Positions 10,119-11,351 of a stretch of 28,560 bases of DNA are shown here, one piece after another. Source of the DNA: Escherichia coli (GTDB taxonomy: Bacteria > Pseudomonadota > Gammaproteobacteria > Enterobacterales > Enterobacteriaceae). The notes under the pieces are model-generated. The model was not told the origin of the DNA. It saw nothing but the letters and a program-made list of their open reading frames with translations, and made no database searches. Position numbers and translations under genes: made by a program. The stretch's first letter is position 1. Each line of letters begins with the position of its first letter. The stretch lies in assembly GCF_003334815.1 (NCBI RefSeq), contig NZ_QOWO01000045.1. One strand, 5' to 3'.

Positions 10119-11351
10119 TCAATTGTTCATAGTGTTTACATCACCGCCAATTGCTTTTAAGACTGAACGCATGAAATATGGTTTTTCGTCATGTTTTGAG
10201 TCTGCTGTTGATATTTCTAAAGTCGGTTTTTTTTCTTCGTTTTCTCTAACTATTTTCCATGAAATACATTTTTGATTATTATTTGAATCAATTCCAATTA
10301 CCTGAAGTCTTTCATCTATAATTGGCATTGTATGTATTGGTTTATTGGAGTAGATGCTTGCTTTTCTGAGCCATAGCTCTGATATCCAAATGAAGCCATA
10401 GGCATTTGTTATTTTGGCTCTGTCAGCTGCATAACGCCAAAAAATATATTTATCTGCTTGATCTTCAAATGTTGTATTGATTAAATCAATTGGATGGAAT
10501 TGTTTATCATAAAAAATTAATGTTTGAATGTGATAGCCGTCCTTTAAAAAAGTCGTTTCTGCAAGCTTGGCTGTATAGTCAACTAACTCTTCTGTCGAAG
10601 TGATATTTTTAGGCTTATCTACCAGTTTTAGACGCTCTTTAATATCTTCAGGAATTATTTTATTGTCATATTGTATCATGCTAAATGACAATTTGCTTAT
10701 GGAGTAATCTTTTAATTTTAAATAAGTTATTCTCCTGGCTTCATCAAATAAAGAGTCGAATGATGTTGGCGAAATCACATCGTCACCCATTGGATTGTTT
10801 ATTTGTATGCCAAGAGAGTTACAGCAGTTATACATTCTGCCATAGATTATAGCTAAGGCATGTAATAATTCGTAATCTTTTAGCGTATTAGCGACCCATC
10901 GTCTTTCTGATTTAATAATAGATGATTCAGTTAAATATGAAGGTAATTTCTTTTGTGCAAGTCTGACTAACTTTTTTATACCAATGTTTAACATACTTTC
11001 ATTTGTAATAAACTCAATGTCATTTTCTTCAATGTAAGATGAAATAAGAGTAGCCTTTGCCTCGCTATACATTTCTAAATCGCCTTGTTTTTCTATCGTA
11101 TTGCGAGAATTTTTAGCCCAAGCCATTAATGGATCATTTTTCCATTTTTCAATAACATTATTGTTATACCAAATGTCATATCCTATAATCTGGTTTTTGT
11201 TTTTTTGAATAATAAATGTTACTGTTCTTGCGGTTTGGAGGAATTGATTCAAATTCAAGCGGAATAATTCAGGGTCAAAATATGTATCAATGCAGCATTT
11301 GAGCAAGTGCGATAAATCTTTAAGTCTTCTTTCCCATGGTTTTTTAGTCAT
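10119..11351 (-). CDS. ea47: Hypothetical 410-aa b-region protein (lambda Ea47-like); function unknown
   Basis: AT-rich minus-strand ORF. The ATG at 11349-11351 with GGAGAG 5 nt upstream gives 410 aa, the size I recall for lambda Ea47; position between tfa and the ATPase/HNH pair. No catalytic motif recognised by eye. Confidence 0.65.
   Translation of the reverse strand: MTKKPWERRLKDLSHLLKCCIDTYFDPELFRLNLNQFLQTARTVTFIIQKNKNQIIGYDIWYNNNVIEKWKNDPLMAWAKNSRNTIEKQGDLEMYSEAKATLISSYIEENDIEFITNESMLNIGIKKLVRLAQKKLPSYLTESSIIKSERRWVANTLKDYELLHALAIIYGRMYNCCNSLGIQINNPMGDDVISPTSFDSLFDEARRITYLKLKDYSISKLSFSMIQYDNKIIPEDIKERLKLVDKPKNITSTEELVDYTAKLAETTFLKDGYHIQTLIFYDKQFHPIDLINTTFEDQADKYIFWRYAADRAKITNAYGFIWISELWLRKASIYSNKPIHTMPIIDERLQVIGIDSNNNQKCISWKIVRENEEKKPTLEISTADSKHDEKPYFMRSVLKAIGGDVNTMNN

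Follow-up and report, generated by a model that had tools for sequence, protein, structure and literature searches.

Introduction

What does ea47 do? This gene of phage lambda is 50 years old and has no assigned function, and the question is raised anew by a 28,560-nucleotide stretch of Escherichia coli DNA (contig NZ_QOWO01000045.1; hereafter the window), in which a copy of ea47 lies within a defective lambda-type prophage. Lambda is the best-studied temperate phage, yet what its b-region genes do has been a question since the 1970s. Here we compare the gene, its protein and its homologs with sequence, structure and defence-gene databases, and find that Ea47 belongs to a broadly distributed family whose genes lack a common partner and often lie near defence genes. 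With a rough probability of 0.4, we read ea47 as a cargo gene that is sufficient by itself, belongs to a bacterial family and was acquired by lambda, and whose most probable role would be single-protein anti-phage defence. We infer this role from the gene's autonomy, its positions in cargo slots and its association with defence islands, rather than from an assay.

The searchable literature holds no functional study of ea47 and no paper on Pfam family PF26900 or on an 'Ea47-like' defence gene. Published work shows that ea47 is non-essential and that its knock-down by CRISPR interference (CRISPRi) has no effect on lambda plating (PMC10695390), and payloads have been inserted into the gene or put in its place (PMC11980383, PMC9674246). 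A yeast two-hybrid map lists unverified interactions of Ea47 with N, in one vector, and with U, in two vectors (PMC3224144). The gene and the family name were already known; new relative to the sources we searched are a widespread, partner-free and defence-island-associated family and a fold without a close solved relative.

The window carries lambda ea47 itself

The ea47 coding sequence occupies positions 10119..11351 of the minus strand and encodes 410 amino acids plus a stop codon, as judged by its open reading frame (ORF), its identity to Ea47 and its membership in PF26900. The first-ATG version in the ORF list is slightly longer (10119..11378, minus strand, 419 aa). We prefer the start at 11351 because a Shine-Dalgarno sequence read from the DNA, GGAGAG (11356..11361, minus strand), lies 4 nt ahead of that ATG, and because homologs from other genera begin at the equivalent of its M-x-K-K-P-W-E-R-R start. 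The predicted protein has a mass of 48.1 kDa and an isoelectric point of 8.0, and no hydrophobic stretch of membrane-spanning length was found across the full 410 residues. The GC content of ea47 is 31.5%, compared with ~50% in the flanking tail-fibre and bio genes; along the window, GC falls to a trough of 0.31-0.33 at ea47, flanked by ~0.5 on the tail-fibre side and 0.35-0.39 on the ea31/ea59 side. An earlier reading of the window made from its letters alone (the sequence-only reading) had described an intact, AT-rich minus-strand ORF with its own ribosome-binding site, and these data bear that description out.

That reading had also called the protein an orphan and 'Ea47-like', and both terms need replacing. 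Window DNA from 10000 to 11600 is 99.9% identical to positions 22567-24167 of phage lambda (NC_001416), and the encoded protein matches lambda Ea47 (NP_040606) at 410/410 residues. Only two nucleotides of the gene differ from the lambda reference, both synonymously, and PHROG 19262, which contains lambda Ea47, matches the window protein with an E-value of 2.6e-295. The ORF is lambda Ea47 itself. It occupies the same place as in lambda, after tfa and before ea31 and ea59; the window copy differs from that of lambda in that its prophage is defective and its host a wild E. coli.

Ea47 represents a widespread bacterial family

We searched 5.8 billion proteins at a cut-off of E<=1e-3 and identified 454 clusters homologous to Ea47, all of which carry the precomputed tag PF26900 (Phage_lambda_Ea47), so the protein is no orphan. 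The best 120 of these 454 clusters are all full length, at about 405-430 aa, and the window protein shares this full-length homology. A second search with a profile built from divergent members returned 450 matches; these are again 400-450 aa long with a single domain, and one is fused to SEC-C. Newer annotations from the Prokaryotic Genome Annotation Pipeline (PGAP) use the name 'Ea47 family protein', and no function is annotated for the family.

Homologs occur in Proteobacteria, Cyanobacteria, Chloroflexi, Actinobacteria and one bacterium of the candidate phyla radiation (CPR). Scanning one genome per species, we detected homologs at 25-44% identity in Methylibium, Stenotrophomonas, Stutzerimonas, Paraburkholderia, Azospirillum and Novosphingobium, and also in Cyanobium, Chloroflexi, Verrucomicrobia, Eremiobacterota and the CPR bacterium. 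More distant homologs lie on plasmids of Streptomyces, Nocardia, Arthrobacter and Acidithiobacillus. Among phages the gene is rare: in a tblastn search of 50,697 phage genomes, matches to Ea47 were confined to lambda and its immediate relatives (18 records). Within E. coli, ea47 is present in 121 of 5,426 complete genomes, always at an identity of at least 99%, and many of these genomes are laboratory lambda lysogens. Judged by these sequence matches, the Ea47 family belongs to bacteria more than to phages, and its patchy spread over several phyla, together with the 31.5% GC of ea47, is consistent with horizontal transfer.

Several database records stand apart from this distribution. 'Campylobacter phage CJLB-4' (MW057783) and 48.5-kb 'plasmids' of Salmonella, Stenotrophomonas and Paenibacillus match lambda ea47 at 99.9-100%. 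In a comparison that covered the ea47 region, these phage and 'plasmid' records, which are as long as the lambda genome (48.4-48.5 kb), are probably lambda control-DNA contamination or mislabelling.

The distribution bears on a role for Ea47 on the side of the phage. Ea47 could be made early, from pL read-through across att, and aid lambda as a counter-defence or host-takeover factor. The gene reads leftward, downstream of int-att-ea59-ea31 in the circular (vegetative) map, and in the lambda literature the 'Ea' proteins were defined as early proteins. Anti-defence genes, moreover, also cluster in the accessory slots of mobile elements. The two-hybrid contacts with N and U (PMC3224144) would fit such a role as well. 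Against it, the only carriers among the 50,697 phage records belong to the lambda group, whereas most homologs are chromosomal, and some lie outside prophages altogether, in an integron cassette or as single-gene insertions between housekeeping genes. A uniform length of 410 aa is also large for a typical inhibitor, and the knock-down left lambda plating unchanged (PMC10695390). We consider a phage-side early function unlikely.

The gene moves without a conserved partner

Around 30 homolog loci, we grouped into families every ORF of at least 70 aa that lay within 7 kb. The sole family common to the 30 loci is Ea47; the next commonest occurs in 4 of them. Across these neighbourhoods we detected no conserved partner gene, and none of the kind expected of a type II toxin-antitoxin system.

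One telling setting is that of a homolog in Vibrio misgurnus (P0010; 62% identity; accession CP113242), whose gene (positions 8001-9233 of locus L037) lies in the chromosomal superintegron. Vibrio cholerae repeats (VCR/attC) flank it at L037 7842-7963 and 9230-9350 and belong to an array that numbers more than 20 of them; the first flanking repeat ends 38 nt ahead of the P0010 start codon and the second overlaps its stop codon. Since the repeats flank the gene directly, P0010 is a one-gene integron cassette of ~1.39 kb (L037 7842-9350). The array also holds many cassettes with DUF645 mini-ORFs. In V. cholerae, 16 of the tested integron cassettes of previously unassigned function (18%) proved anti-phage, and the majority of the 16 consist of one gene (Darracq et al., bioRxiv 10.1101/2024.07.02.601686). 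P0010 resembles these as a one-gene Vibrio superintegron cassette, but none of the 16 systems is reported as Ea47-related, and ~1.39 kb is large for a cassette.

Other carriers likewise hold ea47 alone or in varied company. The Aeromonas homolog is a lone insertion between housekeeping genes. Lambdoid prophages of E. coli 3CM (at torT) and WP4-S17 (at prfC) have the tfa-ea47 arrangement, at 99.4-99.5% identity, without ea31 or ea59. In a lambdoid prophage of Cronobacter dublinensis, the Ea47 homolog lies in the P-ninB cargo slot, adjoined by three co-oriented ORFs of 220, 128 and 376 aa (locus L036, 5318-7477, minus strand). None of the three matches Pfam, and the 376- and 220-aa ORFs have no PADLOC match; the set may be another uncharacterised cargo module.

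Such settings could also reflect conflict or addiction between mobile elements, in which Ea47 would not be directed at phages and would instead be a toxin-like or an anti-plasmid or anti-island factor that stabilises or protects its element. The family is always on or beside mobile DNA (prophages, integrase-bounded islands, an IS91 neighbour, an integron and plasmids), and Lamassu, which reportedly acts on plasmids as well as phages, is among the neighbours described below. The absence of a conserved small antitoxin partner from the 30 loci and a cassette that fits one gene only count on the other side, and make this decidedly unlikely. The narrower toxin-antitoxin version we rejected on distribution, given the one-gene cassette and the lack of a common neighbour family.

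Defence genes are frequent neighbours of Ea47 homologs

A known or candidate defence gene recognised by PADLOC lies within ~5 kb of the Ea47 homolog at 11 of 21 loci, an enrichment to be read against a small sample and a local background taken 4-6 kb away. In this rough control, PADLOC matched 9-10 of 20 adjacent large ORFs, whereas at a distance of 4-6 kb in the same loci it matched 1 of 10.

The neighbours are diverse. A Vibrio parahaemolyticus prophage (locus L001, 8641-14349) encodes an integrase, the Ea47 homolog, the Lamassu proteins LmuA (5e-119) and LmuB (9e-208) and then a cI/Cro-type switch, with the Lamassu genes 250 bp 3' of the homolog. Its slot parallels the lambda layout of int, att, a Septu-like pair and ea47, with a different two-gene system in place of the pair. 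In Shewanella, AbiLi (6e-89) and RloB lie ~1 kb downstream of the homolog, and in Stutzerimonas a P2-type Old (2e-235) lies 160 bp upstream. An integrase-bounded island of Pectobacterium combines the homolog with AbiTii, PDC-S15, a SIR2-like gene, barstar and a UvrD helicase, and an enterobacterial island between nfsA and rimK has PDC-S39 (3e-113) and PDC-S31 (1e-47) directly upstream of it. Further neighbours are a type I HsdR (Novosphingobium), PDC-M55C/HEC-05 (Stenotrophomonas), PD-Lambda-5_A and PDC-S06 (Nitratireductor), PDC-M30A (Achromobacter) and PDC-M26A (a metagenome-assembled genome from Chloroflexi). Defence genes are normally nominated on a neighbourhood pattern of this kind.

The same loci could be read differently, with Ea47 serving an unrelated regulatory, stress or metabolic function, hitch-hiking in variable regions where its defence neighbours are coincidental. 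The loci that have no recognised defence neighbour would be expected if so, as would a protein with no known catalytic motif, no match to a defence model and a C-terminal domain without an informative structural relative. Coincidence fits poorly with adjacent ORFs that match defence models far oftener than ORFs 4-6 kb off, and with the recurrence of ea47 in classic prophage cargo slots; an unrelated function seems to us unlikely.

In lambda and in the window, the next two genes leftward of ea47 match defence models. The next leftward ORF, ea31 (11942-12832, minus strand), overlaps ea59 (12829-14406, minus strand) by 4 nt. Ea59 matches the PADLOC models PDC-M01A (8e-202) and PtuA (9e-185), and Ea31, an HNH protein, matches PDC-M01B (6e-113), so we regard ea59/ea31 as a Septu-like two-gene pair; the searchable literature holds no paper tying ea59 to Septu or PtuA. 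These genes share the b-region cargo slot, strand and low GC of ea47, and by adjoining it in the same orientation they raise the possibility that Ea47 is a third component or regulator of a PtuA/PtuB-like system. The proteins differ in that Ea47 has no sequence or fold relation to the pair. PtuA/PtuB-like genes lie beside Ea47 at none of the other 29 loci, so that the co-occurrence is confined to lambda-type b regions, and the torT and prfC prophages hold ea47 without ea31 and ea59. A spacer of about 560-590 bp with a jump in GC also splits ea47 from ea31. A Septu-related role is very improbable, being largely ruled out by distribution.

The spacer (window 11380-11940) looks like a junction of two independently acquired cargo modules. 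Its GC content jumps from 0.31 to 0.43. Phage HK629 carries an annotated 69-aa hypothetical ORF at the corresponding window positions 11541-11750 (minus strand), and a recombination point is marked in the lambda record at 24389/24390, equivalent to about window position 11822.

Ea47 matches no catalogued defence protein

The sequence-only reading had reported no recognisable motif and proposed remote-homology and PADLOC searches; we ran both, and their outcome agrees with it. No Pfam-A, PADLOC or NCBIfam model matches Ea47. A Pfam-A search with Ea47 and 12 divergent homologs returned only vRNAP_dom (E 0.066) and DUF7591 (E 0.043), which we judged to be noise. The sole NCBIfam match among six distant homologs, to TscA, scored 13.1 bits against a cut-off of 90 and was rejected. 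One distant homolog (L027) gave two marginal PADLOC matches, to 'Effector Endonuclease' and SAVED_PDDEXK models (E 0.007 and 0.011, ~13 bits, 57 residues); as neither recurs in any other member of the family, we took them for chance and rejected them. A sequence search of the PDB with the Ea47 family profile gave 0 matches at E<=10.

A two-domain model with an invariant polar cluster

We modelled Ea47 with AlphaFold2 from a 47-sequence alignment and obtained a confident model, with a predicted local distance difference test score (pLDDT) of 88.7 and a predicted template modelling score (pTM) of 0.86. The model predicts two domains joined by a variable segment. The N-terminal helical domain (residues 1-183; 10803..11351, minus strand) is predicted to comprise helices 5-22, 27-50, 58-71, 74-89, 118-135 and 162-183, with two beta-hairpins before helix 118-135. 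The middle segment (residues 184-252; 10596..10802, minus strand) shows the highest column entropy and carries insertions and deletions between subfamilies. The C-terminal alpha+beta domain (residues 253-410; 10122..10595, minus strand) has a predicted topology of alpha-beta-beta-alpha-beta-beta-beta-beta-alpha.

Conservation peaks in the N-terminal domain. Residues unchanging among homologs at 25-30% identity are R9, Y24, F30, R42, Q49, Y62, W78, the stretch R83-N84-x-I-E87-K88-x-G90-D91-L92, S96, R150, W152 and E161; in the C-terminal domain they are E325, W327 and E347, with H274, K301 and A309 nearly invariant.

In the model, the N-terminal domain resembles four-helix bundles including HEPN domains, and generic four-helix bundles score equally well. 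The HEPN Rx4-6H motif is absent from Ea47; its nearest counterpart is R83-N84-T-I-E87-K88, with lysine in the place of histidine, and no invariant or nearly invariant histidine occurs in residues 1-183 of either of our two alignments (A1 and A2). Ea47 and the distant members tested also match no HEPN or abortive-infection (Abi) model of Pfam-A or PADLOC at E<=1. We rejected membership in HEPN because the resemblance is unspecific and Rx4-6H is missing, and 'HEPN-like helical effector' is for Ea47 a working analogy only. The same features set it apart from AbiJ/Abi_C-like and AbiV-like proteins and HEPN-MNT toxins (PDB 7ae2, 5yep): Ea47 has neither Rx4-6H nor a match to a HEPN or Abi profile, and its C-terminal domain has no counterpart in single-protein Abi or HEPN-type defence proteins.

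Searching the PDB with the full model in Foldseek gave no significant match, and structural matches to GAF, roadblock and TRPML2 were rejected at TM-scores of 0.12-0.16. For the C-terminal domain we found no informative structural relative and no match to a PD-(D/E)xK or other known nuclease core. As modelled, the Ea47 fold is without a close solved relative.

A possible single-protein defence mechanism and its weighing

We propose that ea47 is an autonomous, horizontally mobile one-gene module of PF26900, carried by lambda as cargo, and that it most likely acts against phages as a single protein, by exclusion or abortive infection. The N-terminal helical domain may be the active part, a proposal we make because of its cluster of invariant polar residues (R9, R42, Q49, R83, N84, E87, K88, D91, R150 and E161). 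The middle segment and the C-terminal alpha+beta domain, with E325, W327 and E347, could sense the infecting phage or gate the response to it. Given the likeness of the helical bundle to HEPN-superfamily domains, our leading guess is that this active part would target nucleic acid; with the catalytic histidine absent, it is unlikely to use canonical HEPN RNase chemistry. More tentatively still, and with doubt prevailing, the family might form an unrecognised class of one-protein anti-phage immunity with a non-HEPN active site (R-N-x-x-E-K plus R9, R42, Q49, R150 and E161) and a C-terminal domain without a solved relative.

A single-gene defence or exclusion determinant is what the sequence-only reading had suggested. 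The genomic context strengthens the suggestion through the missing partner, the one-gene cassette, the defence neighbours at 11 of 21 loci and the low rate among distal control ORFs, while the searchable literature offers no phenotype in its favour. Several points weigh against a defence role. No experimental phenotype is reported in that literature for any member of the Ea47 family, and, although phage challenges of lambda lysogens go back decades, we know of no report there of ea47-dependent exclusion. The b region is transcribed from pL during the lytic cycle of lambda, which would suit a function for the phage. Ten of the 21 loci, for example that of Aeromonas, have no recognised defence neighbour, and the neighbour sample is small and was partly picked after Pfam hints had been seen. 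Finally, PADLOC-DB v2 gives 0 families for Ea47 at E<=1 and likewise none for 5 of 6 distant homologs; neither it nor NCBIfam reveals homology to a catalogued defence protein.

The sequence-only reading had also taken the integrity of the gene in a decayed prophage as a sign of selection. This argument is weak because ea47 is identical to the copy of functional lambda and the deletions may be recent; moreover, indels are present in 4 of the 60 E. coli copies listed. Codon changes within the species number 4 synonymous to 4 non-synonymous in one comparison and 3 to 3 in another, with all non-synonymous changes in residues 315-389. With 7-8 changes only, an argument from the ratio of non-synonymous to synonymous substitution (dN/dS) within E. 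coli is uninformative and was dropped.

If Ea47 defends, it would be a new family within a known kind, that of single-gene defence and Abi proteins, possibly with new chemistry but with no surprise of principle, and it would enlarge the defence catalogue by a protein family and, probably, by a novel effector or sensor fold. Rex and the Septu-like Ea59/Ea31 would then be joined by a third exclusion system, so far overlooked, in ordinary lambda lysogens and in many wild E. coli prophages. Replacing ea47 with a payload in engineered lambda vectors or lysogens (PMC11980383, PMC9674246) would, in that case, remove an immunity gene. If Ea47 does not defend, the locus would be a useful caution on calls made by guilt by association. 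Either way, ea47 shifts from an orphan filler gene to a concrete and directly testable loose end of lambda biology.

A short AT-rich leader travels with ea47

In E. coli 3CM, similarity to the window runs ~165 nt 5' of the ea47 ATG and then breaks off. Because similarity stops there, the mobile unit is ea47 plus a short AT-rich leader, a stretch of ~165 nt (11352..11516, minus strand) that travels with the gene between unrelated lambdoid prophages. Inside this leader lies a promoter-like site, TTGACA-N16-TATCAC (11400..11430, minus strand), identified by sequence and annotated as a promoter in phage HK629, which is a candidate ea47 promoter. A scan for consensus promoters found sites no commoner than in shuffled sequence (11 compared with 9.2 +/- 3.3). 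The upstream region of its own that had been ascribed to ea47 thus holds up as a co-moving leader with a candidate site, while the promoter scan stays at the shuffled level; taken together, site and leader are suggestive of an own promoter. A mechanical scan found no terminator for ea47, and an Rfam scan found no match within or adjoining the gene.

The prophage and the remainder of the window

As a whole, the window corresponds to a lambda-type prophage that is defective and sits at the ybhC / ybhB-bioA attB site. E. coli 52F4, isolated from a calf, is 100% identical to the window in the ea47 region. In its PGAP annotation, a large terminase subunit without its C-terminus abuts a tail-tip protein (J) without its N-terminus, a truncated lom abuts the long tail-fibre gene (stf), and ea47, ea31 and ea59 are all intact. 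The sequence-only reading had thus described the setting, a defective prophage, correctly.

Two joints are visible in the window. At 4138-5779 (plus strand), an in-frame-looking deletion joint fuses the large terminase subunit, of which the N-terminal part is left, with J, of which the C-terminal part is left, and the head and tail genes between are gone. At 5849-9406 (plus strand), a 1185-aa ORF begins with the signal peptide and beta-barrel N-terminus of Lom and continues as the side tail fibre Stf, again through an in-frame-looking joint. PGAP records the terminase-J and lom-stf pieces as pseudogenes and one 'phage tail protein'.

Rfam matches elsewhere in the window comprise IS009 (RF02111) at 9749-9947 (plus strand), full length within tfa at 221.7 bits, and two ordinary E. 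coli features of the host flank: a molybdenum cofactor (Moco) riboswitch upstream of moaA (24741-24885, plus strand; 103.6 bits) and the small RNA ES036/CssrF (23435-23476, minus strand; 43.4 bits).

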